IMG/VR virus record: IMGVR_UViG_3300001102_000004 | Coordinates: 1-33,746 of that record | Source of the DNA: a virus | DNA: 33,746 bases | Strand: one strand, 5' to 3' | Shown: piece after piece, positions 1 through 21,675 of the stretch | How the letters are laid out: each line of letters opens with the position of its first letter | Position numbering within the stretch: position 1 is the stretch's first letter | Made by a program: the position numbers and the translations under genes | The notes under the pieces: model-generated | What the model saw: only the letters and a program-made list of their open reading frames with translations | Databases searched by the model: none | Told to the model about the DNA's origin: nothing

Positions 1-49
1 CCGCTAGTAATGGCATTCTATAAATTACTGACGTATCGTTATTGGCTTG
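1..49. repeat. Terminal direct repeat, copy A. Identical to 33698-33746. Most likely a circular-assembly overlap.
   Basis: The 49-nt string ccgctagtaatggcattctataaattactgacgtatcgttattggcttg is present at both window ends. One reading frame runs through the junction without interruption. Confidence 0.95.
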
Positions 50-455: not shown

Positions 456-483
456 AAAACCCCATCTAAATTAATAAACGGGG
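453..483 (-). terminator. Rho-independent terminator downstream of CDS 538-876
   Basis: The minus strand reads CCCCGtttattaatttagatGGGG followed by TTTTTTT. Confidence 0.6.
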
Positions 484-537
484 CTATCGAACTGAAAAGA
501 TAAGCCTATGGCGACTTAAAGAGTTTAAAGTTAATAA

Positions 538-876
538 TTATTTTTTCTTAACCTTAGTTTTTTTAGTTTCTTTTTTAACCTCTACTACTAGCTCCCCTAT
601 AATCTCCTCTGAAAGTATGGTTATTTTAGACGATACAATGTCGTATCTGTGTTTAACAGGAGTTATTTTTTCCTCGATCGCTTTAACTTCCTTGTTAATT
701 TCTTCTCTAAGCTCTTCCTTTTTCTTGTCCTTAACCTTTTGCTCTACTTTTAATTTTTCAATCTCATAGTATTGCTGTTGGCTTTTTTGGTGGACGATGT
801 TTTGCTGCTGTCTAAGCTCTGCAATTTGTCTGCCGTAATGCGATTGTACTACTACGTAGTCCTGTAATGTTCTCAT
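538..876 (-). CDS. Hypothetical coiled-coil, lysine-rich protein
   Basis: 112-aa ORF with an ATG start, co-oriented with its neighbours and flanked by hairpin terminators. The sequence is heptad-like and rich in K and E. Confidence 0.65.
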   Translation of the reverse strand: MRTLQDYVVVQSHYGRQIAELRQQQNIVHQKSQQQYYEIEKLKVEQKVKDKKKEELREEINKEVKAIEEKITPVKHRYDIVSSKITILSEEIIGELVVEVKKETKKTKVKKK

Positions 877-895
877 GTTGTTTGTTGGTTTATAT

Positions 896-921
896 AAAAG
901 GGGATGAAGCTAACCCCTTTT
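896..921 (-). terminator. Hairpin terminator, possibly bidirectional, closing the PAP2 unit
   Basis: AAAAGGGG-10 nt-CCCCTTTT. T-runs follow it on both strands. Confidence 0.5.
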
Positions 922-962: not shown

Positions 963-1163
963 TTAATTTATTTTATTTATCTCCTCCAGGTATATTTTTT
1001 CCATATCTTTTAGGACCTGGTTAATTAGCTTTATTATTTTAAGTTTGTCGGGAATATCTGAGGCATAAAATACAGGTGGTACTGGTTTTTGCGTATCTAC
1101 CTCCAACGGTTTAATTATAATAAAATCTTTTAGTAGGTGTTTACTGAATTTTGTACTCTCCAA
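963..1163 (-). CDS. Hypothetical small protein (needs a TTG start)
   Basis: 66-aa ORF whose translation looks like a normal protein. Its first codon is TTG, with no in-frame ATG near the 5' end. It overlaps the PAP2 gene end by 23 nt. Confidence 0.45.
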   Translation of the reverse strand: MESTKFSKHLLKDFIIIKPLEVDTQKPVPPVFYASDIPDKLKIIKLINQVLKDMEKIYLEEINKIN

Positions 1164-1977
1164 TTACCTCAGGTTTAAAATATCTCTCCAGGCCTCCTAC
1201 TATTAAACCTCCTACATTGTCTATTGCGTGATGCACTCCTGCTAAGGTTCTACATTGCGCCCAAATATAAGCTGTATCAATTAAAACTTTAATCTGTTCC
1301 TCTGTAATTTCGGGAAATTCTTTAATAAGAGACGATATGCCACCAGCCGCAGCCCCTGCATGTCCAGCCGTAAAACTTGGATGGTTAGGGCATCCCTCAG
1401 AATAAGCTGTTAATAACGTTCCGTCTATGTCAGTTTCTTGCTCGTAAACCTCCTCGGGCCTCTCTAGGCCGTAATAATACTTAACCTCAAACGATCTAAC
1501 TAAACCTTTTTGTATTCCGTCAGTTATTTGCTCTTGTACTTGTGGTAGAGACTCTAAAAAATTAATATGGTCTGCTGTGTGGGTTCTAACATTCGCTCCT
1601 TGTGATAATAACCATTTGTGAGCTGCAAAAGGCATGTCTGTAGGTAAATCCATGTGGACCACGTTTGCTAACCCTTTTGGGTCGTCAAAGCTTAACCCCT
1701 CGTTTTTCAAAGGTTGTGTAATTTCCTCAGGGAAAACTCCGTTATAAGGATAATATTTTTCAAAAAACCATCTTGGGAAAATACCCTTTTCAACTTCATG
1801 CCTTACCTGCTGTACTTCTCTCAAACTTTCGTACTTTTTAAAACTCCCTGGTATCTTTACGTTGTGATGGTAACCTACCTTAGGGTTAACTAACCTAGAG
1901 TCTGTTATAGAGTCTAAGTTTTGCTGGTCTACTGGGTATATTAATTCGTTTCCGTTTGCTCCTTTTTTGAAAAACAT
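1141..1977 (-). CDS. PAP2-superfamily enzyme (acid phosphatase / vanadium-dependent haloperoxidase-like)
   Basis: All three PAP2 motifs occur in order: KYYYGLERP (K-x6-RP), HPSFTAGHA (PSGH-type) and CRTLAGVHHAID (R-x5-H-x3-D). I see no signal peptide or TM segment. Confidence 0.8.
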   Translation of the reverse strand: MFFKKGANGNELIYPVDQQNLDSITDSRLVNPKVGYHHNVKIPGSFKKYESLREVQQVRHEVEKGIFPRWFFEKYYPYNGVFPEEITQPLKNEGLSFDDPKGLANVVHMDLPTDMPFAAHKWLLSQGANVRTHTADHINFLESLPQVQEQITDGIQKGLVRSFEVKYYYGLERPEEVYEQETDIDGTLLTAYSEGCPNHPSFTAGHAGAAAGGISSLIKEFPEITEEQIKVLIDTAYIWAQCRTLAGVHHAIDNVGGLIVGGLERYFKPEVIGEYKIQ

Positions 1978-1998
1978 ATTTTTTAAATTTTGTTAATA

Positions 1999-2006
1999 CA
2001 AATATA
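1999..2006 (-). promoter_or_regulatory. Bacteroidota-type -7 box (TATATTTG) in the 30-nt gap upstream of the PAP2 gene
   Basis: Perfect TAnnTTTG, 21 nt before the ATG at 1977. The upstream element is only a weak TTTA at N21. Confidence 0.35.
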
Positions 2007-2822: not shown

Positions 2823-3155
2823 TTATTTTTGATATTCACAAATTTTAAAATTAATAAACTCATCACCTTTTTTAACATCTGTTTTAAACATTGCTAAACA
2901 ATATATTTGATTATCGTTAAACTGGTATTTTTCCTGCAGAACATCTATAAAAGGTTTTGCTACATTATCTATGTCAGCTCCTTTATTGCTAAGTCCTGCC
3001 TCAATCATTAACATTAATCTCTCTTTAGGAGTGTTAATATTATTAGGTAAAATAAAAAGTAAATCACGTCTATATTTTTTGTATTTGTCTGTTTTAAACC
3101 TGCGTCCTTTCCATGCTTCGTTAACGCTCATGGGTTTTATATCTAATCTATACAT
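2823..3155 (-). CDS. rusA: RusA-family Holliday junction resolvase
   Basis: MSVNEAW...R near the N-terminus, plus GADIDNVAKPFIDVL and NDNQI. These match the RusA acidic catalytic pattern (D-x-D-N..K...D.L ... D/N-D-x-Q-I). The 110-aa size also fits. Confidence 0.7.
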   Translation of the reverse strand: MYRLDIKPMSVNEAWKGRRFKTDKYKKYRRDLLFILPNNINTPKERLMLMIEAGLSNKGADIDNVAKPFIDVLQEKYQFNDNQIYCLAMFKTDVKKGDEFINFKICEYQK

Positions 3156-3449: not shown

Positions 3450-4144
3450 AATCCCTCCTTTTTCCTGTTTTCTATTTCTTTTATTATGGGGCCGCAAAAC
3501 TCCTCGTATCTTACCACATTAGTTTTCCAGTAATCAACTATTGATACCAACTGAAAGTCTTTAAAAGTTGGCGCGTAATCCTCATAGTATTTTAATTGGT
3601 CCTCAAATGATGGCTTTTTTAACTGATCCATAGGAGGTGTTTTTTCCTTTCTTTTTATTTGAGCCTTTATTTTACTCCAATCAATTTTATTTGAATCGTC
3701 TAATATTGGCTCAGGTGTTTTATCCATAGCGTTTAACTTAACCTTTTGTTTGTGCTTAACCCTTTCTCTAAAGTCGGCTTTTAAATCTAAATATTTAGGA
3801 ATCCAGGTATTTAATATAATTGAATTGTCAAACCTCAGCTTATCAAATTTTGAGCTTAAAAGTCCAGTCCTACCCATTTTAAGCATGTTTGCTATATCTT
3901 CTATGTTTTCTGTTCTATGTATATCTATAACGTCAAAAGCTAACATTGTCGCCTGATCTATTCCGTATGTTGAAGAGAAATTTTTAGCTGTTCTCATTAA
4001 CATAAATACAATAGATTTTACTATAGTTTTTTCATCTTTTTTTATCAGGCTAGCTATACTGGTTCCGTTATAAGCAGACTCTATAGTTAGTTTTCTCTCT
4101 ATTAGCGATAGCTCAAAGTCATTTGTTTTAGCTATACAGCTCAT
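3434..4144 (-). CDS. Hypothetical protein in the replication module (an alternative start at 4210 is possible)
   Basis: The track ORF is 3434-4210. The start at 4144 (MSCIAK) limits the overlap with the upstream gene to 17 nt. Confidence 0.6.
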   Translation of the reverse strand: MSCIAKTNDFELSLIERKLTIESAYNGTSIASLIKKDEKTIVKSIVFMLMRTAKNFSSTYGIDQATMLAFDVIDIHRTENIEDIANMLKMGRTGLLSSKFDKLRFDNSIILNTWIPKYLDLKADFRERVKHKQKVKLNAMDKTPEPILDDSNKIDWSKIKAQIKRKEKTPPMDQLKKPSFEDQLKYYEDYAPTFKDFQLVSIVDYWKTNVVRYEEFCGPIIKEIENRKKEGLWTLD

Positions 4145-4907
4145 CAATGCTGTTGTTAATTTCTGTGGCTGTGTCGTTATTTGATTGTGTTTTTTTGTTC
4201 CCTGTTCCATTTCTTTTAGATTGTGCGTAAAGCGTTGTAAATTGTTTTCTTAGTTTCTCGGGTGATTGTATGTTAGGCTTCCAAAAATCGCTAACCTGTA
4301 AAAACTTATATACAGCTGTCATTTGATCCCTAGTTATACCATCCCTCTCAATCATTAACCTAATACAGTCTATCCATTTTTTCGCGGCCCCCTGGTTTAA
4401 TTTTTTTAAAGGAGCGTTTATGTCTGTTAAATTCTTTTTTATTAATTGGTAAAAAGCATCTGCAGCTAAATAATAATCTTTAAATTTTTTCGGAACTTGT
4501 GATATGTTAATATCACTTATTGTTATTTTATTATCTATTACATTATCATTAACAGTTACATTATCATTAACAGTTACATTATCATTATCAGGTTTTCTAG
4601 GTTCTAAATTAACCTGCTGGGTTTTTTGGGTTTCTTTAGGATTGTTTTTTATCCTAGGCCTACCTCCTTTTTTACCGTTTAATCTACTCCTTTCCGCTCT
4701 GTCTTTAAACTTTAGTAAATCTCTTTTAAGTTGCTGTTTTATAGGGGTAAAAGCTAAGTTTATAATAAGGTCGTCTGTCGCTGGGTTTTCGTCGTTCACA
4801 TACTTAAATATATGCTTTATTAACTCTCCTGCTTTTTCGTTAGGTAATTGTTCGAATAGTTCTTTTTGGTCTGCGTAGAGTAAAAAACCCTTTTTGTTTT
4901 CAGCCAT
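4128..4907 (-). CDS. Putative replication initiator/organiser (DUF6291-like N-terminus) with an internal DNVTVN repeat linker
   Basis: MAENKKGFLLYADQKELFEQLPNEKAGELIKHIF followed by a basic GKKGGRPR stretch, as I recall from phage replication organisers. The track ORF extends to a GTG at 4970 through dyad-rich sequence, so I prefer the ATG at 4907. Confidence 0.55.
   Translation of the reverse strand: MAENKKGFLLYADQKELFEQLPNEKAGELIKHIFKYVNDENPATDDLIINLAFTPIKQQLKRDLLKFKDRAERSRLNGKKGGRPRIKNNPKETQKTQQVNLEPRKPDNDNVTVNDNVTVNDNVIDNKITISDINISQVPKKFKDYYLAADAFYQLIKKNLTDINAPLKKLNQGAAKKWIDCIRLMIERDGITRDQMTAVYKFLQVSDFWKPNIQSPEKLRKQFTTLYAQSKRNGTGNKKTQSNNDTATEINNSIDELYS
4499..4516. repeat. 7-bp perfect inverted repeat (GTGATAT gtta ATATCAC) next to the iterons
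   Basis: Read directly from the sequence. Confidence 0.8.
4551..4598. repeat. Tandem 18-bp repeat, acattatcattaacagtt, about 2.7 copies. Iteron-like and located inside the replication gene.
   Basis: Units at 4551-4568 and 4569-4586 are identical. 4587-4598 is a partial third copy. Confidence 0.9.
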
Positions 4908-5022
4908 AATTTTAATTTTTGTGCATAAAAAAACCTTATCAGGATCAGCTATAAGTGGAACACGCATCACCCAATAAGGTAAAAAAATCTTTTCGTTTAA
5001 CCTGTTCCACTAGGTCAACAAT
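4908..5022 (-). promoter_or_regulatory. Dyad-rich leader or regulatory region upstream of the replication gene
   Basis: GTGGAACA (4955-4962) and TGTTCCAC (5003-5010) form an 8-bp inverted repeat. CCTTAT/ATAAGG (4934-4939 and 4974-4979) is followed on the minus strand by T7. Confidence 0.35.
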
Positions 5023-7102: not shown

Positions 7103-7133
7103 CAAACATAAACAAATATTTCGAATACACAAA
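7103..7133 (-). promoter_or_regulatory. Canonical Bacteroidota sigma-A promoter: TTTG-N19-TATGTTTG
   Basis: The minus strand reads TTTGtgtattcgaaatatttgttTATGTTTG. Both boxes are perfect, the spacer is 19 nt, and it lies in a 99-nt gap. Confidence 0.65.
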
Positions 7134-7461: not shown

Positions 7462-7650
7462 TTATTTAGCTCTTTTTCTTTTCTCCTTGAATAGTTTAAT
7501 TAAAATCTTAACTACTTCCCAAAGTCCAGTCCAAAAATATCTACTATGTATAAACTTACCTGTGTTCTCTCCTCCAATTATATTGGATAAAGATTTTATT
7601 TTACCGTCTAACTGCTTATCGGTTAAATTATTTATTTCTTTTTTAGTCAT
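7462..7650 (-). CDS. Hypothetical small protein in the lysis cassette
   Basis: 62-aa ORF with a hydrophobic WTGLWEVVKILIKLF segment and a basic tail. Confidence 0.5.
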   Translation of the reverse strand: MTKKEINNLTDKQLDGKIKSLSNIIGGENTGKFIHSRYFWTGLWEVVKILIKLFKEKRKRAK

Positions 7651-7861
7651 TTCTTTGATCTGTTTTATCGTTATTTAAAACAAATTGACCACCTCCAGCA
7701 ACTTTATTAGGTACGGACCTATCTAAAACTATAGCTAAAAAATTTAGTATACTATGGCTTTTTAAAGTTGGTTTAACTCTTACTGCTAGCTCATATATGC
7801 TAAATAAAATAATTATTATTAAATCCCAGTTACTAGATAAAAATTTAACTATGTTCTCCAT
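7643..7861 (-). CDS. Holin-like small membrane protein
   Basis: 72 aa with two hydrophobic stretches (LIIIILFSIYELAV and ILNFLAIVL). It lies immediately downstream of the endolysin gene. Confidence 0.5.
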   Translation of the reverse strand: MENIVKFLSSNWDLIIIILFSIYELAVRVKPTLKSHSILNFLAIVLDRSVPNKVAGGGQFVLNNDKTDQRND

Positions 7862-8334
7862 GTTAAAAGGTTTTTGATTTTATCAAATATAACAAATTTA
7901 AAATTATATTTAGTAGAGTTATCCCATTTAACAAAATATCCTCTGCTGTCATAATGAACAAATGTATTATATAAACCTAAACCTCCTTTATCTATTACCC
8001 CTATATCTATTAAAAATTTAATGTCTGCAGCTAATTGTTTCGTGGTAATAACAGATTGTTTTAAATCTGTTGCTACAGCTCTTTTATGGTAGCTGCCCTT
8101 TGCTGTTTTATATCCCCTAGACGGCAAAACTACATCGTTGTAATTTGCAGTCCTGTAGCCGCTAGATATTCTTATAGATATTTGTTTACCGTATTTATTA
8201 CTTATAAAGTCTCTAATAACTTGTAAGTTATGTAGGTGTCTTAATGCTTGTGGCTTTAATTTTTCAGGTACAGGAGTCCTGTTTTTATCGTTGCAAGCCA
8301 TTTCATAAAGCTTAAAGTTTTTTTCGCCTCCCAT
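7849..8334 (-). CDS. Endolysin, peptidase M15-type (zinc D-Ala-D-Ala carboxypeptidase fold)
   Basis: SGYRTANYN ... SYHKRAVATD ... GGLGLYNTFVHYD matches the SxHxxGxAxD / H-x-D zinc-ligand pattern. Confidence 0.7.
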   Translation of the reverse strand: MGGEKNFKLYEMACNDKNRTPVPEKLKPQALRHLHNLQVIRDFISNKYGKQISIRISSGYRTANYNDVVLPSRGYKTAKGSYHKRAVATDLKQSVITTKQLAADIKFLIDIGVIDKGGLGLYNTFVHYDSRGYFVKWDNSTKYNFKFVIFDKIKNLLTWRT

Positions 8335-9182
8335 TATTTAGATGTGTTACAGTTTATTTTTCTATTAGATCGGTCTGCCTCTTCGAAATTAAGCAGCCAA
8401 AACTTCTTTTTACTATTAAAAAAGCTAGACAATTCAGCTGCAGTTATATTTAAAAAGGGTTTTATTTCGCAGCTTAAAACGTCTGCTGTTAACTTAATCC
8501 TGTCAGCATGGGCCAAAAGGTTTTTAATTTCCTCGTTAATATCATTGTCTTTTATCTGCAGCTCATAGTTACAAATAACCTCCGAGCTTTGTTTAGTTAG
8601 TTTTAAATTTTTGTTTAAATAAAATTCATTATTTATAGTAGGTGTAACCTCTCTAGTTATACCGTCAACCCTAAAACTGTAATAGTCATTACAGAAAAAA
8701 GCACCGTTTTTTAATTCTCCGTCTATCCAAAACTCTATTTTAACTGTGCCCTGCGCTAAACATTCATCGAAAAAACAAGCGTTAAAGAAAATACTTTTTT
8801 CGTTTTCTACTCCTAATACTTTTGTGCATATTTTAACCTCGTAAGGCCCCTCTCCTAGATCATTAATTATATTATTCCAGTTTATGCAGTAGTAATACCT
8901 TAAACCGTCTATTTTTATAGTCGAATAATTAGAGCCGTCTAAAATTGTTTCAGCTCCATTTTTTATTAACTTAACATCTATCGTGTCCGCTTCAATTTGT
9001 TTGTATACGGTAAAACAGTACTCATCATTGCTAAATACTTTTTGGTAAAAGTCACAGCATGTAAAGCAGTCTAAGCATTTAGCCTCCTCCTGGTTAGGTT
9101 TGCATACAACGCTAACACATTTAGAAGTTAAAGCGTAACCTTTATTATAGGTCTCGTTTGTTTCTAAAAACTCCTTAATCAA
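8334..9182 (-). CDS. Hypothetical cysteine-rich protein in the tail/baseplate-distal region
   Basis: 282-aa ORF with a TAATG junction to the endolysin gene. It contains a CLDCFTCC cluster. Confidence 0.65.
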   Translation of the reverse strand: MIKEFLETNETYNKGYALTSKCVSVVCKPNQEEAKCLDCFTCCDFYQKVFSNDEYCFTVYKQIEADTIDVKLIKNGAETILDGSNYSTIKIDGLRYYYCINWNNIINDLGEGPYEVKICTKVLGVENEKSIFFNACFFDECLAQGTVKIEFWIDGELKNGAFFCNDYYSFRVDGITREVTPTINNEFYLNKNLKLTKQSSEVICNYELQIKDNDINEEIKNLLAHADRIKLTADVLSCEIKPFLNITAAELSSFFNSKKKFWLLNFEEADRSNRKINCNTSK

Positions 9183-9408
9183 TTTTATCGTTTTTTTCTA
9201 AATATAAATTAAGTTCCTGTAGGGCTTTGTCTTGCTGTATATTTAATCTGTCAAAATCTTTAGCTATCTCTTTAATTTCTTCCTGTATTGTTCTCATTTC
9301 TTCTATTTGATAATTTAACTTATCATTAAAAGAATCTTTTTTAATGTAGTCGTGTTTAGTCCTAAAGGATAAAAACAACAAAGAGGATAGTATAACTATT
9401 TTTTTCAT
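9175..9408 (-). CDS. Small protein with an N-terminal signal-like segment and a coiled-coil
   Basis: Starts MKKIVILSSLLFLSF and continues with a heptad-like sequence. Confidence 0.55.
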   Translation of the reverse strand: MKKIVILSSLLFLSFRTKHDYIKKDSFNDKLNYQIEEMRTIQEEIKEIAKDFDRLNIQQDKALQELNLYLEKNDKID

Positions 9409-9764
9409 TATTCAGTTTTTAACTTTTCTATTACAGTTTGTAAATATTGCTGCTTTTCTATTGAGGAATTTCTTTTTTTTCTTATTTCCTCCAGGTCCTT
9501 TTTAATGCCGTTGTTGTTTTCTTTTATTTGTTTAATAACATCCGTATAAATTCCTGTTATCTGCGTCCTGTTTTCTCTACTTAAATTAAAGTAATCCTGC
9601 CTAAGTTCCATTAATTCCGTTCTGCAATCTCTATACTTTTCATCTTCCGATTTTTCGTTAGATTTATAAAGATAAATTACAGCACTAGATAGCGAGCCTA
9701 TACCTATTATTAATAAGGCTAGGCTCAATTTTCTAGGGGTTAAATTTATTAGATTATTCCACAT
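9408..9764 (-). CDS. Type-II membrane coiled-coil protein (i-spanin-like topology)
   Basis: The N-terminal TM segment LSLALLIIGIGSLSSAVIYLY is followed by a long coiled-coil. Confidence 0.5.
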   Translation of the reverse strand: MWNNLINLTPRKLSLALLIIGIGSLSSAVIYLYKSNEKSEDEKYRDCRTELMELRQDYFNLSRENRTQITGIYTDVIKQIKENNNGIKKDLEEIRKKRNSSIEKQQYLQTVIEKLKTE

Positions 9765-9983
9765 TTACAAAACTTCATAATCTCCGTCGTTAACTATAAA
9801 ACCTTTAAGTATTTTAGTTAACTCCTTTGAGTTTGTTACTTTTTTAACTTTTAATGTCAAGTTGTATTTAGCAAAAAAATGTTTAAAGCTTTTAATTTTA
9901 ACTTTAACCTCTGTTTTTGATAAAACACCCTCTTTAGTTTCTTCTATAATAAGGGTGCTCCTGTTTTTTAAGTATTTTTTCAT
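9765..9983 (-). CDS. Hypothetical small protein (ATG at 9983 inside a TAATG junction)
   Basis: The track starts at a TTG at 9989. An ATG two codons downstream overlaps the upstream stop. Confidence 0.55.
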   Translation of the reverse strand: MKKYLKNRSTLIIEETKEGVLSKTEVKVKIKSFKHFFAKYNLTLKVKKVTNSKELTKILKGFIVNDGDYEVL

Positions 9984-11839
9984 TACCAAATATAATTTAA
10001 TTCTACATCAAACTCGAAATATTTTTGGCTAGGGGATGAAACTAAATTTACAGTTTCAAACCTAACTCTTTTCCTAACACCAATAGTGTCAAGAGGTACA
10101 CTTTCCCATTCTACGTTACCGTCAGATTGTACAAAAGTATTATTTAATAAAACACCATCTACATAAACATCAACGTCAGGCATTTCAGAGTTTGCCGTAT
10201 CTATAAAGTGTGCTCCCCTTAAAATAAAATCCTGAAAAGCTATAGACGGTAAATTATCCTCGCTAAATGGCTGCATTGTGTCGTATATCTCTCCGTTTCC
10301 TAACTTTCTGTTGTTTACAAAATAAGTACCTAGCGAGCTATTAGCTGAATCTATACACATGTTAGACTCTGCGCTCATTTGGTTGTCAAAATCAGCGTTA
10401 AACGTATATTCGCTGCCTGTGTTTAAAGCACCTGATACAAATGTTTGCTGGTAATCTCCCCATGTATTATTAAAATCGTTTGGTATAACTCCGTTACTTA
10501 TTAAAGTTCCGTTTTCTCTAACCTCAAATAATGTAGTTTCATTGTATTTAAACTCTTCCTGTCCTCCGTCATAAACGTTGTATAAGTCTAAACCTATAGC
10601 TGCTGTGTTTATGTCTCCAAAAATATTAGCTTCAATTTGATTTACAGCCCTCATAAACGAAGCGTCGTTATCAGGGTTTACATTTTGTAATCCGCTATTT
10701 GAGCTTGTAGCGCATATAATAAGCTGTACTATTGTAGCTGCAGAATCCCAAGAGGAACCGTTAAAGCTACCATCGCTATAAGTTCTATTATTATCTGTGG
10801 CCCAGCTAGGTTTATTAAAGTTAATAAAACCTCCGTCTGTAATAGTTCCACTCATATATGAAGTAAATGAAGTATTTAAAGAGGCGTCTAAACTAGAGCT
10901 TGAAAAATTACTAATATCATCGCCTACTACACCTGTTAAAACTTCTAACAAAGTAATACTTGTAGCGTCATATATTTTAAATTCTACAGTATCTCCGTTT
11001 TGCAACGGTGTTGCGTCGTCACTCTCCCTTAAATCTACTGACATTTGCAAAGGACCATTTATAAAGTCTCCTCCCTGGTCAAATATTCTAGCTATAGGGT
11101 TTGTAAAAATAACACCTCCTGTAGTTGTTTTGTTTATAACTGGACTTTGTGCCGACTCGTTACCCGAGGTGTCAACTGCGCTAACAGATATGTCGTAAGA
11201 CTGTCCAGGGTTTAAACCTGTTATAGTCGTCGTATTGCTAGGCTCGAAAACCTGAGTAAATAAAACTCCGTCTAAATAAACATTATAGTAGTCTACTTGC
11301 ACGTCGTCTGTTGAATTATCAAACTGTATAGATATGCTATTGTCGTCGCATGCAGTAGGTATTAAATTCAAAGGTACGCTAGGAGCTGTTACGTCTCCTC
11401 CTGTTGAACTTGAAAAACAAACCTCTTGCTCTCCTGCTATGTTTTCTCCGCATCTAGGGTGTACTACTCTAATACACATTTTTAAATCTGAAAACCCTGG
11501 GTTTTGAGCTAACCAATTATTTTGGTCAAAAAATACACTATCTCCTGCTGTTGCGGTTCCTGTTAAATATGCAGCATTATCTATATACCATTGGTCTAAA
11601 CCTCCTGGGTAGTTTGTTTCCGTAGGCCTGTTAATGTCGTCTCCAATATCGTATCTATTAGTAAATATATTGTCTCCGTTAGAATCCTTTAGACTAAGGA
11701 AAAAATGCCCCTCTGTTATTGGGTCTCCTGCTGCATCTAGTAAGCCTAGCTGCACGTTATAAGTTCCGTCTGAGTTGTCTATTAAAACTGTTTCGCATGT
11801 CGGCCTGCCGTTTAAGCAAACGCAAATATTTTCTGCCAT
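9983..11839 (-). CDS. Tail fibre / receptor-binding protein with a fibronectin type III domain
   Basis: 618 aa. The FN3-like segment APSVPLNL...YNVYLDG...LNPGQSYDISVSAVDTSGNES maps to about 11123-11386. The gene has its own promoter-like element. Confidence 0.7.
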   Translation of the reverse strand: MAENICVCLNGRPTCETVLIDNSDGTYNVQLGLLDAAGDPITEGHFFLSLKDSNGDNIFTNRYDIGDDINRPTETNYPGGLDQWYIDNAAYLTGTATAGDSVFFDQNNWLAQNPGFSDLKMCIRVVHPRCGENIAGEQEVCFSSSTGGDVTAPSVPLNLIPTACDDNSISIQFDNSTDDVQVDYYNVYLDGVLFTQVFEPSNTTTITGLNPGQSYDISVSAVDTSGNESAQSPVINKTTTGGVIFTNPIARIFDQGGDFINGPLQMSVDLRESDDATPLQNGDTVEFKIYDATSITLLEVLTGVVGDDISNFSSSSLDASLNTSFTSYMSGTITDGGFINFNKPSWATDNNRTYSDGSFNGSSWDSAATIVQLIICATSSNSGLQNVNPDNDASFMRAVNQIEANIFGDINTAAIGLDLYNVYDGGQEEFKYNETTLFEVRENGTLISNGVIPNDFNNTWGDYQQTFVSGALNTGSEYTFNADFDNQMSAESNMCIDSANSSLGTYFVNNRKLGNGEIYDTMQPFSEDNLPSIAFQDFILRGAHFIDTANSEMPDVDVYVDGVLLNNTFVQSDGNVEWESVPLDTIGVRKRVRFETVNLVSSPSQKYFEFDVELNYIW

Positions 11840-11870: not shown

Positions 11871-11897
11871 CAAATTTAAGCTATTATTTAATACAAA
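11871..11897 (-). promoter_or_regulatory. Promoter-like element, N15 class: TTTG-N15-TAAATTTG, then TAATAGTAA, 31 nt before the ATG
   Basis: Its 18-nt core TTAAATTTGTAATAGTAA (11862-11879) is identical to 22612-22629. Confidence 0.55.
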
Positions 11898-14800
11898 TTA
11901 TGGAACAAACAAAGTACACTCCCCAAAATCATTACTGCATTCGTTTATAGCTGTTAATTTTAACGTTAAAGACGTTTGAAAGTCTGGAAAGTCATTTATT
12001 AAATTAATAAAATCTATAGTTATAACTCCTCCCGTAGTGTTTAGCGGTGTTGTTGTTATTCCAAAATAAGGCTGTAAATCAGTCCAAGTATAAGATACAC
12101 CAGGTAAGTCTGTTCCTGGTACGGTTACTGGGTTAGCTCCCGAATTAAAATTAGATCCAAATACTATAACTCCTAAATCATCTAAAACCTCTATGTTGTA
12201 GTTTGTCGGAGTGTCTCCTAAATTACCCCAGTTAAAATCAGCGAAATTAGGGCCTTGTCCGCTAGCTACACATCCAGTAGATAACTCTACCTCTTCACAT
12301 ACGTTTCCTATCTCCAAATCTCCACAGTCAGTATTTAAACATATAGATAAATAAGATGTGTTTAAAGCTGTTAAAAAACCTCCAGGAAATTTAGCACTTA
12401 AAGCTGGGTCGTTGTTTATACCTGTAACATCAAAAACTAATTTACCAAAAAAGGAGATATTAGTAGTTAATTCATTAATATAAGGTTGTATATCTGACCA
12501 TAAACATAATGCTCCTGGGTTCTGACTTGCTGGGTTTTCTAAAACAGGGTTTTGCCATTTATTAAAAGTTGCATCTATAACTAAATCTCCTACGCTGTTT
12601 TTTATTTTAAATCTCAAAGGCTCATCTATAACCTGGTTAAAAGAGTAGCATTGAGAATAACCTTGGTTAGAATTACTTAAAGTTAAAACCTCGTTAATTA
12701 AACCGCCCTCAGGTGTAGTACATTCTGAAAAACCTAAATCTAAATACGAACATTCGTTACCGTAGTGCAATAAAGCTACAGAATTTACTAAAGGCTGTGT
12801 GAAAAATTCGCCTTGAAATTTAGGGCCTAAAACAGGGTCGTTGTTTATACCGTCTCTGTCAAATAATATAATTCCACTCGGCCCAACTAAAGTGGTTGTA
12901 GGTGTTATAATAAAGGGTTGTAAGTCTGACCATTGACAAAGCGCGTTAGGGTTTTCTGATACTGGGTTGTCGTTTTTCGGGTCGTCTCCAATATTAAAAA
13001 AAGCATTAAAAACTAACTCCTGGTTAGAGTTTACAAAGCTAAATCCTATAGGGTTTTCTACATTATTTAAGTTGTAAACTAAATCTATTGTAGGTGATAC
13101 AATGGAGTCTAAATTAAAGTTAAAATTTCCTGTTACTGGCACACAAGCTATCTCTCCTTTTTTAGTTCCTAGCCTCGCACTTATTTTATACTCGTTTGGC
13201 TTACTTATATTTGATCCGTTTATAACAGTTTCTAAACAAAAAACTCCTGGCGACGGGTTAGTTAAAACTGAATTACTTTTGAATATATTTAAAATGTTTT
13301 CTTTTTTGCTGCTGTTTTCTTCTATTGTTGTTTTTCCTATTGAGTTTTTAGGCTCTACTCTAAACATTCCCCAAACATCGTTAATAGTAGCCTGGCTATT
13401 TAAGTTTGTAAAAGTTACTTTTATATTAGTGTCCTCTCCGTCAAATAAAACACCGTCAACAATTAAACCATCATTGTCAGTTATAACATATTCTTTAGTC
13501 CATTCCTCCGAATCTTCATATCCGCAAACGTTAAACTCAGGACTATAAAAACTGTAAGGTGTAACTATACCGTCTGCGTCTGAAATTTCAAAACATATAA
13601 CAGTCCTTATACCATATCCGTTTTTTAAGTTATAGTTAGATACATCCTGGTTTAATCCGTTGTTTGGTTCGTTGTTGTCATAAAAAACCGTGTTAGCTCC
13701 TGGTAAAGCGTTCCATTCCTGCCAACATAACTGTATAGGAGTACATAAAGTATATCCAAATAAACTACGCTCTCCTGTAAATCCATTTGTAGTTAAAATG
13801 TTATTGTTAAAACTATCTGACGATGGTATTAACAAAGACTCAGAAAAATTAACCTCTAATTGTTGAGTGTTAAGTCCATTTTCAGGCACTATAGTTTGAC
13901 CTGTCAATGGAATATTTTTAGTTGTAAAAACAAACTCGTCTCCTGTGTTAGGGTTGTAAGCTAATGTTTTAACCTGTATACTTTCTATTAACGCTCCTTT
14001 TTCTAGGTCCAAACAAAAATCCGTACATTTTAAAATATTATCCTCTATAAAACCTGAATATGTATCACACCCATCACCCTCTAAGTCGTCGCAATGTCCG
14101 TAAAACTTCATTTTTTTAACCTGTATTAAACCAGGTACACAAGCATCATAAATAAAGCTTTTAACATCTGCTAAAATCATTGTTTTATCACTTGTGGCTG
14201 TAGGACCTCCATTTGAAACGTCAAAAGCTAACATATAGCAATCATCGCCATTTATATTTTTTGGAAAGTTTACATTAATGCATATCTCTAATGTCTCATT
14301 GTCAATAAGATTGTAACTATAGTTGTTAAAAACTCCATTTTCTCCAGTAGTGGATGAGCTGCCTATATCCTCTATGCCGCAATCATAACAAAAATTTTCA
14401 TTAAAACAAGTAGTAGTGTTGCTGTATTCGTCTACAGTAGGCAACAAAGATATGTAGGCTCCAAATGATGCCCCAGCACTAAAGCTACCTGACGCGCTTT
14501 TTATTATAGCTCTAACCTTTGTATCCTCGTTAGCTAATAAGCATTCTACCTGGTCTCCTACTTCATTTAAATACTCTATAGTTTCTACAGAATACTCTGT
14601 GGTATTGTTTAAAGATTGATTAAACCAAACTACATTGCCTTGTTGGCTTACATGTTCGCATATTTTAGCGCAATTAGGGTCCGTTAGTTTATTTCTAAAC
14701 TCCGCACTAAACACATAATTTATAGAGTTTGTTCCGTTAAACAAGTCAGGAGGTATTCCCATTTGTAAATTTTCTTTTTCTCCGTCCTGATAGTAAGGTG

Positions 14801-15461
14801 TTACGGTAAACTCGTGGCATATTTTAAAATTCTGTATCTCCCCTTTAGAACCTCCAGTTTGCAGTTTCTCTACTGTTGTTTTTCCAGTTTGCCAACTACA
14901 AATAGGTCCAACCTTGTTTAGTGTTATTTCCCCTCCAGCCTGCACTCCCGATGTTGAGTATGCTTGCTCGTTTCCGTCAATCCAAAAATAGTTAGATGGT
15001 GCCCCATTTTCTATTAATCCGAATTTGTATACTAATCCGTCTAGTGGTGTAGTTCCTATTATTTTTAAAAAAGAAGTGTCTTTATAACTTCCGCTAGGAA
15101 CTATAACGTTATCTACTACTGCGTCAATAACCATGTTTTCAGAATTTACAGAGCTAACTGTATATGGTCCTGTTACACCTGAGTTTGTTTGTAAGCAAAC
15201 CTCGTCACCTATACAAAAATCGTCGTCTAAAAAGCTCCCAAAATTCCTACTTATAAAAGTTTTACCTGCGTTTACATTTACAGTAAAACATAAAGTAGAT
15301 GTACTTATAGAATCCCAAAAAATAGCTACTTCAAACTCAGCCTTTACCCTGTTCATAGGTGACGCTAATATATGGCTATTAAAGTCTGTTAAATTTTCTG
15401 TAAAATCTTTACCGTTTATATGGTCCAGGTAAAATTTACTGCTCGTTATTATACAACTCAT
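11898..15461 (-). CDS. Large tail fibre / host-specificity protein
   Basis: 1187-aa ORF downstream of the tape measure and the 562-aa tail protein. It is cysteine-rich and has three tandem C-terminal domain repeats. Confidence 0.7.
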   Translation of the reverse strand: MSCIITSSKFYLDHINGKDFTENLTDFNSHILASPMNRVKAEFEVAIFWDSISTSTLCFTVNVNAGKTFISRNFGSFLDDDFCIGDEVCLQTNSGVTGPYTVSSVNSENMVIDAVVDNVIVPSGSYKDTSFLKIIGTTPLDGLVYKFGLIENGAPSNYFWIDGNEQAYSTSGVQAGGEITLNKVGPICSWQTGKTTVEKLQTGGSKGEIQNFKICHEFTVTPYYQDGEKENLQMGIPPDLFNGTNSINYVFSAEFRNKLTDPNCAKICEHVSQQGNVVWFNQSLNNTTEYSVETIEYLNEVGDQVECLLANEDTKVRAIIKSASGSFSAGASFGAYISLLPTVDEYSNTTTCFNENFCYDCGIEDIGSSSTTGENGVFNNYSYNLIDNETLEICINVNFPKNINGDDCYMLAFDVSNGGPTATSDKTMILADVKSFIYDACVPGLIQVKKMKFYGHCDDLEGDGCDTYSGFIEDNILKCTDFCLDLEKGALIESIQVKTLAYNPNTGDEFVFTTKNIPLTGQTIVPENGLNTQQLEVNFSESLLIPSSDSFNNNILTTNGFTGERSLFGYTLCTPIQLCWQEWNALPGANTVFYDNNEPNNGLNQDVSNYNLKNGYGIRTVICFEISDADGIVTPYSFYSPEFNVCGYEDSEEWTKEYVITDNDGLIVDGVLFDGEDTNIKVTFTNLNSQATINDVWGMFRVEPKNSIGKTTIEENSSKKENILNIFKSNSVLTNPSPGVFCLETVINGSNISKPNEYKISARLGTKKGEIACVPVTGNFNFNLDSIVSPTIDLVYNLNNVENPIGFSFVNSNQELVFNAFFNIGDDPKNDNPVSENPNALCQWSDLQPFIITPTTTLVGPSGIILFDRDGINNDPVLGPKFQGEFFTQPLVNSVALLHYGNECSYLDLGFSECTTPEGGLINEVLTLSNSNQGYSQCYSFNQVIDEPLRFKIKNSVGDLVIDATFNKWQNPVLENPASQNPGALCLWSDIQPYINELTTNISFFGKLVFDVTGINNDPALSAKFPGGFLTALNTSYLSICLNTDCGDLEIGNVCEEVELSTGCVASGQGPNFADFNWGNLGDTPTNYNIEVLDDLGVIVFGSNFNSGANPVTVPGTDLPGVSYTWTDLQPYFGITTTPLNTTGGVITIDFINLINDFPDFQTSLTLKLTAINECSNDFGECTLFVP
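11901..13073 (-). repeat. Three tandem, diverged domain repeats of roughly 110-145 aa at the fibre C-terminus
   Basis: Recurring blocks NP..ENP...ALC.WSD(L/I)QP(F/Y)I and GINNDP. At the DNA level gggtcgttgtttatacc occurs twice, near 12408 and near 12836. Confidence 0.7.
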
Positions 15462-17363: not shown

Positions 17364-20300
17364 TTATCTAAGTTTACGTTTAATTTTAGTTATAGTTTTA
17401 TCGCTTACTATAACTTGTGTTATTATATCTCTAAGTTGGTCGTACTCATAGCCCACCTGTGGTATGTCTATTTTTGAAACGGCAGTAGTTAAAGCGTTTG
17501 TTATCCCAACCTCGTCAATAGTAACAGAATTTAAATTACTCATGTTTCCTTTAGGGCTTACTACTCCAGTATCAAAAAACCCTTTAACATATTTGTTTTT
17601 AAAATCTGACATGCTAGCACCTTTTAAACCTAAGTCCTTTGTTGTTGCAGCATCTATTACAAACTCCTTACCATGTGTAACACCTGCAATATCGTTAACT
17701 CCTACGTCTCCAGTATAACCTCCCGTTTTAAATCCGTTAAGAGAATTAATAAAAGCTAATAAAGCTGTAATACCTCCACTAGTATTACCTAAAGACTCTA
17801 AAGGGGTTTGATCGTTTTCTAAGCCGTTAATATAACTTTTTATAGCTGCGGTAGTAAGCTCTGTTATTCTCGCTCTACGCTCTTGTTTTTGCTTTTCCCT
17901 TTGCAGTTCTGCTATTTTTTTATTTTCAAACTCTAGCCTGTCTAAGTCGTCTGTAGTTTGACTATCTCCTAAAGACTCTAATTTACCTATAGCTGTTTCT
18001 CTTTGTTTAATTTCGTTGTCTACTTCGGCTATTCTTTGTTTAGCTAGTTCTTGTTGTGACTTATTAAACTCCTCTGTAGATTTTCCTACCCTATCGTAAA
18101 ACTGTTTTTGTTTTTCCTCCCTATCTAAAAGGTCCTTTTGTAACTGGTCGTTTAAAGCTTTTGCTGTGTCTATTATAACCTGGTTTGTTTTTTCGTTTTC
18201 TTCCTCTACTCCAGCTAAAACATCCGCTGCCTGCTCAGGTAACCCATCACCGTCTATAGTTAAAAGCTCTACCTGTTCTCTACCTTTACCGTCCAGTATG
18301 TCCTGTAGTCTTTTAATTTCCTCTTTTAATGTTTCAGCCTCAGAGGTTAAAGATTTAAACTTTTCTCCTAGAGCGTCGTTAGGATCGTTTAAAGCTAACT
18401 CCCTTTCCTTTCCTACCTCTTGTAATTTCTTTTTTAACTGCTCTAGCCTAGATAATCTTTTGTCGTTTGCGCTACCTCCTGATCCTTGTTTATCCGCTTC
18501 GTCTTGCGCTTTTTTCTGTTCAGCTAATATTTTAGCTTGTAATTTTTTCTCGTCCTCTATTGCTTCTTTTTCCCTGTCGGCCCTTTTCTTTTTTACAGCA
18601 TTATTAAAAGCGTCTCCTACGTCAGAGCCTGCGGTTTTAAAAGTTTCTTTTAAGTCGTCTACAGCTTTTCCTGCAGCGTCAAAATCAAAAGTTAAAGCGT
18701 TTCCAATAACTCTCCCTAAATTTTTAGTAAACTCAACTACCTGTCTGCCTATTTCAAAAATAGCCTCTTTTGTGGCCAAAAACAAAACTGGTATATCTGT
18801 TATAAAACCTCCTATAGATTTAAAACCTCTGCCTATCGCGGCTAAAACGTTTTGTAGTCTAGGACTTTCAGCTATATAGTCTCTTGTAACTTTTACTAAA
18901 CCAGTAAAAGCATCTACAATAAAGCTAATTACAGTTAAAGTAAATTTTAATGGTATTTGCAAAAACTCAAAAACCTTTGTAAGAACACCTACCGAGTCTG
19001 TCGCTTCGTCCGCTTCATCACCAAATAGGCCCAACGCTTCAAACAGCCCTACAAAAGAATCTCTAACCTCTGTTATAAATGGTTTTAAAGTGTCTATTGC
19101 TGCGTCAAAAGCTATAATTATATCGCTTATAAAATCAATAACTGGAGCTAAAAACTCTACCAGGCCATTGTCACCAGCCAACAAAGCGTCGAAAGTGTTT
19201 TTTAAACGCTGCCATGATGCGGCAAATGTCCTCGTATTTTGCTCTGCTTGTTTCTGAGCTACCCCGTTCTCATCTACTTGCTCTGTAAGCTCCCCAAAAC
19301 GGTCTATATTTTCAACTAAAACACTTGCCGCTTCTTTATTTTCTCTACCAAAAACCTTAGTTAAAGCTATTGAGTTTCCTTGTATTTTAGATAGCTCTGT
19401 TAACCTTTCTTTTAATGTTAGGTTTTTGTCAGCTAACACGTCTGTATTTACTCCTGCGGCCTGTAATTGAGCTACAGCCTCTTTAGGTAAAGCCTCTGCA
19501 GTAGACAATATAGAGAATACGTTTCTTAATTTAGTTCCTGCCTCGGCTCCCTCTAAACCTTTTTCGGCTAATAACTCTATGGCTCCTACTGACTCCTGTA
19601 GTTTTATATTTGCGCCTGACGCAGAAACACCGAATTTAACTAATGCCTCTGTAATTGCTGGAATTTCCGCAGCTCCTGCCTGTGCTCCTGCAGCAAGAAT
19701 ATCTGTAACCTTTGCTGCTTCGCTTGCGTCTTTACCGTACTGGTTTAAAACCTTTGTTAACGATCCAACGGAGCTGGATAAATCGTCTCCACTAGCTTTA
19801 CTTAATAATATGGCCTGCTTTGTAACGTCAGCTAAAGCGTCTCTGTTTTCTAATAGCTCAGGCTTTGCACTACCTACTAATTTAAAGGCCTCTACTGTAT
19901 CTTTTAATGATGTGCTTAATGTACGATCCTGTGCTATTTGTTTTGCTTGCTCTGCAAAAAATCCTAATTCCTCTCCTTGTATTCCTAGTATAGAACCTAA
20001 AGATGCTAAGGATGTTTGAAACTCAGACTGTACGGCTATAGCTCTTTTAGTTATCGCTGTTATCCCTGCTAATGCTCCAGCCGCTAAACCTACAGGGCCA
20101 AGCACTAAATTTTTAATAGCTCCTCCAACACCTCCCCAGGCACTACCGTAGTTTCCTACATTCCTTTGATATTGTCCAGCGTTAGCGTCAATTTTCTTTA
20201 AATTACCATCTAACCCTCCTATTTGTTTCTGTAGGTCCTTTGCGTTTTTGCTAGCTATACCCTCAGACGCTGCAACATCTTTGTATCTTTTCCTTAATTG

Positions 20301-20708
20301 GTTTAGCTCTATTGATAGTTTTTCGTAAGCTGTAGTAGTCTCGCTTTGTAACTTTGCCTCCTCTCTATTTATTTTGTTTTTTCTGTTTATTTCAACCCTT
20401 AAAGCTGCTACCTCTTTTGCTTCTTTACCTGTTAGATTTGTTAGCTTAGATTGTAGTTTTTCTTTTGTTCTTAAAATCTTATCCTGTTCTGATAATATTT
20501 TATTTGTTTTCTGAGACTCTTTATTAAAATCGTTTATACCTTTTGCGCTACTTAAATCAAAAGCATTTATTTTTTTTGCAGTAGCTTTTAATAAACTATT
20601 GTATTGTTGCTCTAACTGCTCTAAAACTTTTAAAAAATCTGCTGCATTTTGCGCTTCACCTCCAAATAAATTGGACTCTAATATATCCTCCTTTTTAATC
20701 TTTGCCAT
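17364..20708 (-). CDS. Tail tape measure protein
   Basis: 1114 aa with long coiled-coil regions, glycine-rich hydrophobic segments and a C-terminal GGYTGDVGVNDIAGVTHGKEFVI motif. Its position after the chaperone-slot ORFs also fits. Confidence 0.85.
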   Translation of the reverse strand: MAKIKKEDILESNLFGGEAQNAADFLKVLEQLEQQYNSLLKATAKKINAFDLSSAKGINDFNKESQKTNKILSEQDKILRTKEKLQSKLTNLTGKEAKEVAALRVEINRKNKINREEAKLQSETTTAYEKLSIELNQLRKRYKDVAASEGIASKNAKDLQKQIGGLDGNLKKIDANAGQYQRNVGNYGSAWGGVGGAIKNLVLGPVGLAAGALAGITAITKRAIAVQSEFQTSLASLGSILGIQGEELGFFAEQAKQIAQDRTLSTSLKDTVEAFKLVGSAKPELLENRDALADVTKQAILLSKASGDDLSSSVGSLTKVLNQYGKDASEAAKVTDILAAGAQAGAAEIPAITEALVKFGVSASGANIKLQESVGAIELLAEKGLEGAEAGTKLRNVFSILSTAEALPKEAVAQLQAAGVNTDVLADKNLTLKERLTELSKIQGNSIALTKVFGRENKEAASVLVENIDRFGELTEQVDENGVAQKQAEQNTRTFAASWQRLKNTFDALLAGDNGLVEFLAPVIDFISDIIIAFDAAIDTLKPFITEVRDSFVGLFEALGLFGDEADEATDSVGVLTKVFEFLQIPLKFTLTVISFIVDAFTGLVKVTRDYIAESPRLQNVLAAIGRGFKSIGGFITDIPVLFLATKEAIFEIGRQVVEFTKNLGRVIGNALTFDFDAAGKAVDDLKETFKTAGSDVGDAFNNAVKKKRADREKEAIEDEKKLQAKILAEQKKAQDEADKQGSGGSANDKRLSRLEQLKKKLQEVGKERELALNDPNDALGEKFKSLTSEAETLKEEIKRLQDILDGKGREQVELLTIDGDGLPEQAADVLAGVEEENEKTNQVIIDTAKALNDQLQKDLLDREEKQKQFYDRVGKSTEEFNKSQQELAKQRIAEVDNEIKQRETAIGKLESLGDSQTTDDLDRLEFENKKIAELQREKQKQERRARITELTTAAIKSYINGLENDQTPLESLGNTSGGITALLAFINSLNGFKTGGYTGDVGVNDIAGVTHGKEFVIDAATTKDLGLKGASMSDFKNKYVKGFFDTGVVSPKGNMSNLNSVTIDEVGITNALTTAVSKIDIPQVGYEYDQLRDIITQVIVSDKTITKIKRKLR

Positions 20709-21648: not shown

Positions 21649-21675
21649 TCAACCAACAAATTTATTTTATTAGTA

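Follow-up and report, generated by a model that had tools for sequence, protein, structure and literature searches.

A compact PAP2-superfamily protein similar to vanadium haloperoxidases, encoded by an accessory gene of a phage genome

The window analyzed here is the IMG/VR virus record IMGVR_UViG_3300001102_000004 at its full length of 33,746 nucleotides, and the subject is a 278-amino-acid protein encoded on its minus strand. The protein belongs to the PAP2 superfamily and is most similar to the vanadium-dependent haloperoxidases (VHPOs), in particular to the vanadium bromoperoxidases (VBPOs). It is very probably an active enzyme of the PAP2/VHPO branch that works on a histidine-bound tetrahedral oxyanion and is encoded by an accessory phage gene. 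A specific haloperoxidase mechanism is a slight favorite, tentatively chosen on the basis of motif alignments and a predicted structure.

Gene, protein and PAP2 motifs

The original prediction, made from the sequence of the window, described a 278-amino-acid open reading frame (ORF) with the three PAP2 motifs in the correct order, and this was confirmed. The motifs KYYYGLERP (K166 to P174), HPSFTAGHA (H199 to A207) and RTLAGVHHAID (R243 to D253) follow one another in the canonical PAP2 order. Motif 3 reads CRTLAGVHHAID, in which the residue preceding R243 is not the serine of the PAP2 consensus S-R-x5-H-x3-D. The features of the gene are listed below; the compact family consists of the protein and its homologs, and the sister family is described in the next section.

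1141..1977 (-): PAP2/vanadium-haloperoxidase-like coding sequence, ATG start, 278 amino acids, from the ORF list
1558..1977 (-): N-terminal ~140 amino acids, including MxxFxKG and the VVHMD block, specific to the compact family and the sister family
1648..1650 (-): codon of Asp110, which aligns with the Asp in VH(F/Y)D of VBPOs
1489-1491 (-): codon of F163, three residues N-terminal of K166
1456..1482 (-): PAP2 motif 1, K166-x6-R173-P174 (KYYYGLERP), from column counts and VBPO alignment
1360..1383 (-): extended motif 2, H199-P-S-F-T-A204-G205-H206, from alignment with VBPO HPSYGSGH and Acaryochloris marina HPSYGAGH
1219..1251 (-): PAP2 motif 3, R243-x5-H249-x3-D253, aligned with VBPO R..AGVHY..D; the predicted role of H249 is that of covalent oxyanion ligand or nucleophile

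Pfam PAP2 (PF01569) was the sole library match of the protein and covered residues 165 to 263 (E = 2.5e-5), although the score of 24.5 bits was below the gathering cut-off of 27.2 bits. No Pfam model covers the N-terminal ~140 amino acids. The low score is a borderline value of one divergent member and not counter-evidence on homology. The same model matched 101 of 146 aligned family members (E <= 0.01; best 4.9e-13), and with a fold-match probability of 1.0 the predicted membership of the PAP2 superfamily was borne out.

Neither a signal peptide, a hydrophobic N-terminus, a transmembrane (TM) helix nor an amphipathic anchor was seen when hydropathy and the starts of homologs were inspected, in agreement with the original prediction, which had reported no signal peptide or TM helices. 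The highest 19-residue Kyte-Doolittle mean was 1.12. MxxFxKG is the direct start of the protein in 128 of the 146 homologs, indicating that the compact family is not Sec-secreted. The product is a soluble, cytoplasmic enzyme of ~31 kDa.

Placement by profile and predicted structure

When the family profile was compared with the PDB, the VBPOs of Corallina, Acaryochloris and Ascophyllum ranked first, with E values of 7.5e-7 to 1.4e-4. The vanadium iodoperoxidase (VIPO) of Zobellia (8e-4), class A acid phosphatases (7e-3 or higher) and LpxE (0.03) followed at lower ranks. Pfam VCPO_2nd gave a faint precomputed match in two homologs only.

A sister family was found in the search of representatives (P0163, P0175, P0187, P0178, P0186 and P0190; alignment A4), with proteins of 310 to 430 amino acids. 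The two families are homologous over 252 columns, N-terminal blocks included (hhalign E = 6e-54), and the profile of the sister family matches VBPOs at E = 2e-13.

The AlphaFold2 model built from the alignment was all-helical, with a pLDDT of 95.8 and a pTM of 0.93. K166, H206 and R243 are located at helix termini in the DSSP string of this model. In the Foldseek comparison with the PDB, VBPO and VIPO entries matched at E = 2e-6 to 7e-5 with query-normalized TM-scores of 0.44 to 0.55, and PhoN-type acid phosphatases from E = 2e-3 with target-normalized TM-scores of 0.55 to 0.61. PgpB, LpxE and NapH-type enzymes had lower ranks. The Foldseek probability was 1.0 to VHPOs, acid phosphatases, PgpB and LpxE. 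The profile and the predicted structure support placing the protein on the haloperoxidase-like side of the PAP2 superfamily, as had been proposed from its HPS-type motif 2; VBPOs were the top matches by both methods, and the block EG(C/S)PxHPS(F/Y)xxGH aligns with VBPOs.

Conserved residues and predicted active site

Conservation was assessed in an alignment of 146 members with 23 to 58% identity. Seven columns, and no others, are invariant in it: D110, K166, R173, H199, H206, R243 and H249. The invariance of K166, R173, H206, R243 and H249 among such divergent homologs indicates that the motif triad did not arise by chance. The vanadate-site residues of CiVCPO are Lys353, Arg360, His404, Arg490 and His496 (PMC10278073). 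Its Ser402 forms a hydrogen bond to vanadate. In the alignment with the VBPO motifs, H249 corresponds to the vanadate ligand, K166 to the Lys, R173 and R243 to the two Arg residues and H206 to the acid-base His. The predicted oxyanion-binding center is thus complete and strictly conserved, and the putative catalytic residues align with the active-site positions of the family, a point on which the original prediction could have failed. His249 is predicted to bond covalently to a tetrahedral oxyanion, with His206 as the acid/base. Other motif positions are less strictly kept: G205 is found in 142 and P174 in 139 of the members, and the motif-3 residue D253 in 112. The blocks correspond as follows.

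D110: family A..VHxD; VBPO Corallina DLATWVHFD, A. marina DLATYVHYD
F163 = Trp338, K166 = Lys341: family AFxxK......RPEE; Ascophyllum nodosum SSWYQKWQVHRFARPE (SSWYQK..ARPE)
H199, H206: family YPEGxPxHPxxPA(G/M)H; VBPO FPEGSPMHPSYGAGH / EGSPFHPSYGSGH
R243, H249: family RTxAGVHYxxDN; VBPO R..AGVHYF.D

The original prediction named HPSFTAGHA as a PSGH-type motif. The block is present, but the canonical PSGH serine corresponds to Ala204, and the serine of the noted HPS is at another position. At the position of Ala204, the members have Ala (117), Gln (14) or Ser (5). The A. marina VBPO also carries Ala at this position (HPSYGAGH) and is an active brominating enzyme (PMC11871015), indicating that the Ser-to-Ala exchange is compatible with VHPO activity.

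The residue at i-3 of the motif-1 Lys is a documented determinant of halide specificity. Red-algal and cyanobacterial VBPOs have Arg at this position, CiVCPO and AnVBPO have Trp, and substitution with Phe or Trp raises chlorination (PMC11871015). In the family, the corresponding position F163 is occupied by Phe in most members (133) and by Trp in 6. The second-shell residues were mapped via the profile of the sister family, with moderate alignment confidence; D110 of the window protein corresponds to D131 of P0163 and through it to the Asp of the Corallina and A. marina blocks. A sub-profile of motif 1 only (alignment A2) gave nothing but spurious matches to the PDB, and the mapping of motif 1 was therefore taken from the sister-family profile. 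With moderate confidence, D110, F163 and H199 may form a second shell of the VBPO type. The features that separate the family from generic PAP2 proteins, namely the HPS-His, RPE, the VHxD Asp, the aromatic residue at i-3 and Ala at the serine position, all point to VBPOs; from this set, D110 and H199 are invariant.

Family size, distribution and mobility

Fifty full-length homologs were found with 36 to 56% identity, all of them unnamed metagenomic proteins of 260 to 290 amino acids. The exhaustive profile search, in which representatives are clusters at 50% identity, gave 1406 representatives at E < 1e-3, 388 at E < 1e-10 and at least 124 at E < 1e-30; nearly all family profile matches have 250 to 290 amino acids. 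The window protein matched no entry in PHROGs or NCBIfam, and NCBIfam models gave its relatives nothing above the cut-off. A tblastn search of 50,697 GenBank phage records gave no match, in line with the original prediction that the gene does not encode a standard phage function. The fold search of BFVD gave no phage counterpart, only giant-virus PAP2 proteins, and the scan of 185,579 species genomes gave only five close loci. The loci that carry the gene are as follows.

L004/L005: 63-kb phage, with TerL, ThyX, a dNMP kinase and RNR as neighbors
L006: 62-kb phage, muramidase ~1 kb upstream and HAD/PNKP-type phosphatases nearby
L007: 57-kb phage, between Mu-F/head genes and the tape-measure gene
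L008/L010: 63-kb phage, with SU10-type portal and tail-like proteins
L018: phage-like block with large unannotated genes
L001, 8165-10867 (+): Bacteroidota chromosome, homolog preceded by a pair of RlaP (PF10127) nucleotidyltransferase genes, all three closely spaced and co-directional as in an operon
L002/L003/L017: bacterial chromosome, homolog upstream of a conserved cluster with a weak trypsin-like protein, DUF6603 and giant proteins
L011: Saprospiraceae metagenome-assembled genome (MAG), Amidase_3 gene directly after the homolog
L012, 5751-7933: Saprospiraceae MAG, homolog beside a Lipase_3/DUF6792 protein and a CAP12/Pycsar-type TIR-domain protein

None of the genes flanking the window copy recurs in the other loci, where a possible downstream immunity or partner ORF was also looked for, indicating that the gene moves as a self-sufficient single-gene cassette. 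The phage contexts L004, L006, L007, L008 and L018 are mutually different, and neighborhoods are conserved only between L002 and L017 and between L004 and L013. The gene is therefore a single-gene accessory cassette that spreads among unrelated phages and a few Bacteroidota chromosomes. Its distribution in phages, which the original prediction proposed to check, is thus sporadic and without shared neighbors, with no tblastn match in the GenBank phages.

The bacterial cluster (L002 10001-20858 and L017 6167-17042, both (+)) comprises a small ORF, a weak trypsin-like protein of ~480 amino acids, a DUF6603 protein of ~1135 amino acids and proteins of ~1150 and ~1830 amino acids. The DUF6603 protein is 63% identical between L002 and L017, and a literature search on DUF6603 found nothing relevant. 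The neighborhood in L012 may be a defense or conflict island. Two independent fusions were observed. P0075 (705 amino acids) has a lipoprotein signal, Peptidase_M43 and a TM segment before the PAP2 domain, and P0108 (446 amino acids) has Peptidase_M10 (matrixin) and a Pro-rich linker before it. Such metzincin fusions are rare, these two being the only ones examined among the 150 representatives listed.

A separate observation concerns the phage of L004 and L005, which encodes a 162-amino-acid protein with Pfam IF3_N and IF3_C matches (L004 12847-13335 (-); L005 11040-11528 (-)). This suggests a phage-borne homolog of translation initiation factor 3.

Possible functions

As possible roles, the original prediction had suggested changes in phosphate or halogen chemistry or in envelope lipid phosphates during infection, and these stay among the alternatives considered here. 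If the protein is a haloperoxidase, His249 would bind vanadate as the cofactor, and H2O2 would convert it to a peroxo-vanadate activated by Lys166 and His206. A halide, more likely bromide or iodide than chloride, would then be oxidized to a hypohalous acid or transferred to a bound substrate. In infected cells on halogen- and peroxide-rich surfaces, H2O2 would be consumed in this way or a target would be halogenated. It is doubtful, and rather less probable than the mechanism as such, that phages of surface-attached marine bacteria, possibly among others, use haloperoxidases of ~270 amino acids to make intracellular hypohalite from H2O2 and halide. Such use might serve to dampen the algal oxidative burst or to add halogen to a particular target, e.g., the nucleobases of the phage's own DNA as an anti-restriction mark.

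Several points weigh against a haloperoxidase. PAP2 phosphatases and VHPOs share their catalytic residues, and the motifs therefore cannot separate the two activities, between which the nature of the bound oxyanion decides. The protein has about half the size of the smallest characterized VHPO entries matched (Zobellia VIPO, chain of 458 amino acids), and it is similar to VHPOs at only 17 to 19% identity and TM-scores of ~0.47 to 0.55. Free hypohalous acid would be toxic to the cell if made in the cytoplasm, where H2O2 levels are normally low. The literature search for phage PAP2 or haloperoxidase genes found no phage haloperoxidase on record, and phage phosphatases and nucleotidases are common. 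The carrier loci vary in GC content from 0.35 to 0.63. The operon-like row of L001 with its two RlaP genes hints at phosphate-ester chemistry.

Several of these points are equally points for classical PAP2 chemistry, which is a possible alternative. The protein would then act in the cytoplasm as a histidine phosphatase or pyrophosphatase, or perhaps as a phosphotransferase: His249 would attack a phosphomonoester or diphosphate to form phospho-His, His206 would protonate the leaving group, and water would free phosphate. Likely substrates would be soluble nucleotides or other small metabolites carrying phosphate, which would be removed or remodeled during phage replication. The invariance of the five PAP2 catalytic residues, the Pfam PAP2 match as the only one from Pfam, and the significant fold matches to class A acid phosphatases, LpxE and PgpB with target-normalized TM-scores of 0.55 to 0.61 are consistent with such an enzyme, and 278 amino acids is near the size of class A phosphatases (217 to 261). 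Apo-VHPOs have phosphatase activity, which also counts for this alternative. So do the cytoplasmic location, the position of the gene at the close of the replication/recombination module of the window, the location of the L004 copy among ThyX, dNMP kinase and RNR genes, the phosphatases near the L006 copy, and the same-direction RlaP genes ahead of the L001 homolog. However, the similarity to phosphatases in sequence and structure is clearly weaker than that to VBPOs, and no nucleotide-metabolism neighbor is consistent across the loci. The PSGH serine of PAP2 phosphatases is Ala or Gln in 131 of the 146 members, and the motif-3 Asp of the charge relay is dispensable, as its absence from about a quarter of them (112/146 retain it) shows. 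The invariant D110 and H199 are VBPO-type features for which a phosphatase has no obvious need.

Two further explanations are less probable. An unlikely one is that the protein has other chemistry or only binds, either as a vanadate-independent isomerase like NapH3 or as an oxyanion or phosphoprotein binder serving as effector or toxin partner of degradative enzymes. The fold matches include NapH3, a VHPO homolog that catalyzes a rearrangement. In P0075 and P0108 the domain is joined to metzincin proteases (M43 and M10, respectively), and the bacterial copies precede the trypsin-like/DUF6603 cluster or a lipase. Yet the fusions are rare, and K, R, H, R and H are strictly invariant even among members of only 23% identity, which speaks for oxyanion catalysis having been retained. 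A helper of lysis or envelope remodeling is more improbable still. It would act from the cytoplasmic face on lipid-linked phosphates, such as undecaprenyl phosphate or diphosphate, lipid I/II or lipid A precursors, and starve wall synthesis or remodel the envelope. Two homologs are weakly similar to NCBIfam undecaprenyl-diphosphatases (E = 0.02 to 0.1, far below the cut-off), LpxE and PgpB are among the fold matches, and a lysin gene is located close to the homolog in L006 (muramidase) and L011 (Amidase_3). The association with lysins is, however, limited to these 2 of ~12 contexts, and membrane PAP2 enzymes show the weakest similarity of the three groups. The protein has no TM helix or amphipathic anchor, and the window phage has a separate lysis cassette with an M15 peptidase and holin- and spanin-like ORFs.

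Host phage genome and surroundings of the gene

A 49-bp direct repeat is present at the ends of the window (1-49 and 33698-33746), and the independent JGI contig L019 (12 kb, 99.99% identical) joins position 1 to position 33746. The terminal repeat and this bridge indicate that the window holds a phage genome in full, ~33.7 kb long and either circular or circularly permuted. All of its genes are on the minus strand, and the gene layout, as judged from PHROG matches, is siphovirus-like. The presence of TerL, portal, major head and tape-measure genes in a circular genome is evidence that the PAP2 gene is phage encoded. The main genes are listed below.

30398-31621 (-): large terminase (TerL), PHROG match
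29180-30379 (-): portal, PHROG match
27070-28293 (-): major head protein, PHROG match
17364-20708 (-): tape-measure protein, PHROG match
11898-15461 (-): distal tail-module protein, 1187 amino acids, weak or unknown-function PHROG match
9983-11839 (-): distal tail-module protein, 618 amino acids, weak or unknown-function PHROG match
9175-9408 and 9408-9764 (-): spanin-like ORFs, TM/coiled-coil, lysis cassette
7849-8334 (-): Peptidase_M15_3 endolysin; lysis cassette 7643-9764, distal to the tail genes
7643-7861 (-): holin-like ORF, 72 amino acids, lysis cassette
4128-4970 (-): DnaD/replication-O-like protein, PHROG match
2823-3155 (-): RusA-like resolvase, PHROG match
963..1163 (-): ORF of 66 amino acids, TTG start, overlapping the PAP2 gene by 23 nt; doubtful
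538-876 (-): coiled-coil ORF, 112 amino acids

The 1187- and 618-amino-acid proteins are candidate host-recognition proteins because of their position after the tape-measure gene. The relatives of TerL and the capsid protein are distant (25 to 37% identity) and include phages of Leeuwenhoekiella, Tenacibaculum, Cellulophaga and Olleya, which are marine Flavobacteriaceae. A host among the Flavobacteriia is plausible from these similarities. No closely related phage genome was found in GenBank. Samples BBAY65 and BBAY66 are the sources of the window phage and of a second phage that carries the gene. Their prefix is taken to denote the Botany Bay macroalgal-surface project, and such an origin would count in favor of halide oxidation. 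The project itself is attested (PMC5389517).

The PAP2 gene forms the distal end of the replication/recombination module (DnaD-like, RusA), and the packaging genes come next round the circle. This location between RusA and terminase resembles that of the lambda lysis genes, but a role of the PAP2 gene as a substitute for the lysis cassette was ruled out by the M15 endolysin and the holin- and spanin-like ORFs. The spacer between the PAP2 stop codon and the next called gene (start 876) is 264 nt long, and the Rfam search of the whole window, this spacer included, gave no match. The 66-amino-acid ORF is probably not a gene: it has no PHROG or Pfam match and no homolog in related loci, and it is uncalled on the identical contig L019.

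Transcription signals

The original prediction regarded the PAP2 gene as a moron-like unit with its own transcription signals. Its status as an accessory, horizontally mobile gene is well supported, but the evidence for autonomous transcription is weak, as similar boxes precede other genes, the downstream hairpin is modest and GC at third codon positions (GC3) is ordinary. The signals considered are as follows.

1999..2006 (-): TATATTTG, Bacteroidota -7-type promoter-like box, 22 nt 5' of the ATG; function putative
7103-7110, 11871-11878, 21657-21664, 22621-22628 and 30384-30391 (-): TAnnTTTG boxes in short intergenic gaps before tail-type, portal and other genes
~894..921 (-): terminator-like hairpin AAAAGGGG-N10-CCCCUUUU, 8-bp stem and 10-nt loop, in the 264-nt spacer

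Between the end of the upstream ORF at 2008 and the PAP2 ATG at 1977 is a gap of 30 nt, and the TAnnTTTG box described in this gap was found there, read from 2006 to 1999. Such a box is unremarkable by itself: TAnnTTTG occurs 68 times in the window, near the expectation of 51 +/- 8, and 6 of the 36 minus-strand copies are in noncoding DNA, which makes up 6.8% of the window. Comparable boxes are located 27 to 34 nt before the gene starts at 7076, 11839 and 22587, the second of which belongs to the tail-type gene 9983-11839. This distribution hints that the phage uses Bacteroidota-type promoters throughout. The TATATTTG box may well be a genuine promoter element, yet it does not set the PAP2 gene apart.

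A hairpin terminator had also been described after the next small ORF. The hairpin itself was recovered, also by a terminator scan, but the small ORF is the doubtful one mentioned above. With a folding energy of -10.1 kcal/mol and z = -2.65 relative to shuffled sequences, and without a U-run past the stem, it is plausible as a terminator of modest quality. A stronger terminator-like hairpin, with 11 pairs followed by a T-run, is located at 458-485 (-), after the 112-amino-acid ORF, and may be the real end of an early/middle transcription unit.

The GC content of the PAP2 gene (0.395) is the highest among the 43 ORFs (mean 0.328, SD 0.038), and its GC3 is 0.333. Because the latter value is ordinary, the excess may reflect amino acid composition and not a foreign origin.

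Novelty and implications

The superfamily and its catalytic logic are already known. Features that appear to be new are the compact architecture of ~270 amino acids, which includes a conserved N-terminal region of its own, and the size of the unnamed family. Its sporadic spread through unrelated phages also appears to be new, as does the lack of any match to it in PHROGs, NCBIfam and the full set of GenBank phage records searched. If the protein is a haloperoxidase, it would be the first from a virus and smaller than any known so far. The minimal size of a VHPO scaffold would be halved, which would be useful for biocatalysis, and halogen and peroxide chemistry would join the processes reprogrammed by phages. 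If it is a phosphatase, it would represent a new cytoplasmic PAP2 type acquired repeatedly by unrelated phages. In either case, a large unnamed family with a bacterial sister group and diatom relatives fills the gap between acid phosphatases and VHPOs. It therefore offers a tractable system for identifying the residues by which a PAP2 site is turned from hydrolyzing phosphate esters to catalysis with vanadate.

Comparison with known systems

Close relatives outside the compact family are those of the sister family, characterized by HPxxPAMH, in which Met replaces the Gly before the motif-2 His and an insertion of 30 to 50 residues separates motifs 1 and 2. These proteins often have long N-terminal extensions, some apparently of low complexity, and their function is putative. 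Their wider relatives include diatom proteins (Seminavis, Nitzschia, MMETSP) with the UniRef name "phosphatidic acid phosphatase type 2/haloperoxidase."

Class A acid phosphatases (Escherichia blattae 1d2t, Salmonella PhoN 2a96, PhoC) are similar to the phage protein in size, in the five catalytic residues and in the helical core. They rank below all VBPO and VIPO entries (best profile E = 7e-3, fold E = 2e-3), retain the PSGH serine and do not have the HPS-His, RPE and VHxD blocks of the phage family. Class A acid phosphatases are periplasmic and have signal peptides, for which the phage protein has no equivalent.

The VIPO of Zobellia galactanivorans (4cit/4usz) is a bacterial member, from the Flavobacteriia, of the same branch as the VBPOs. 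Its profile match (E = 8e-4) extends over all three motifs, with query residues 140 to 252 aligned to residues 303 to 429, and its query-normalized TM-score of 0.55 is the highest obtained. It differs in its chain of 458 amino acids and has only 15 to 17% identity.

The VBPOs of Corallina (1qhb/1up8/8vgx), Ascophyllum (1qi9) and Acaryochloris (5lpc/8q21) are the best matches of the phage protein by profile and fold. The two share the K/R/H/R/H vanadate-binding set, RPE after motif 1 and the Asp of VHxD, and the block EG(S/C)PxHPS(Y/F)xxGH is aligned residue for residue, including the extra His H199. The phage protein further shares the aromatic residue at i-3 of the Lys with the A. nodosum VBPO and Ala in place of the PSGH Ser with the A. 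marina VBPO. In contrast to these enzymes of algae and cyanobacteria, which have 556 to 666 amino acids, it is phage borne and has 278 (17 to 19% identity; query-normalized TM-scores of 0.44 to 0.49). The alignments show no VBPO counterpart of its first ~95 residues (conserved FxKG...YP N-terminus), which precede the VHxD block. It does not have the VHPO architecture of two helical bundles in 450 to 670 amino acids: the long insertion between motifs 1 and 2 and the second helical bundle are absent, and the protein consists of a single PAP2 core.

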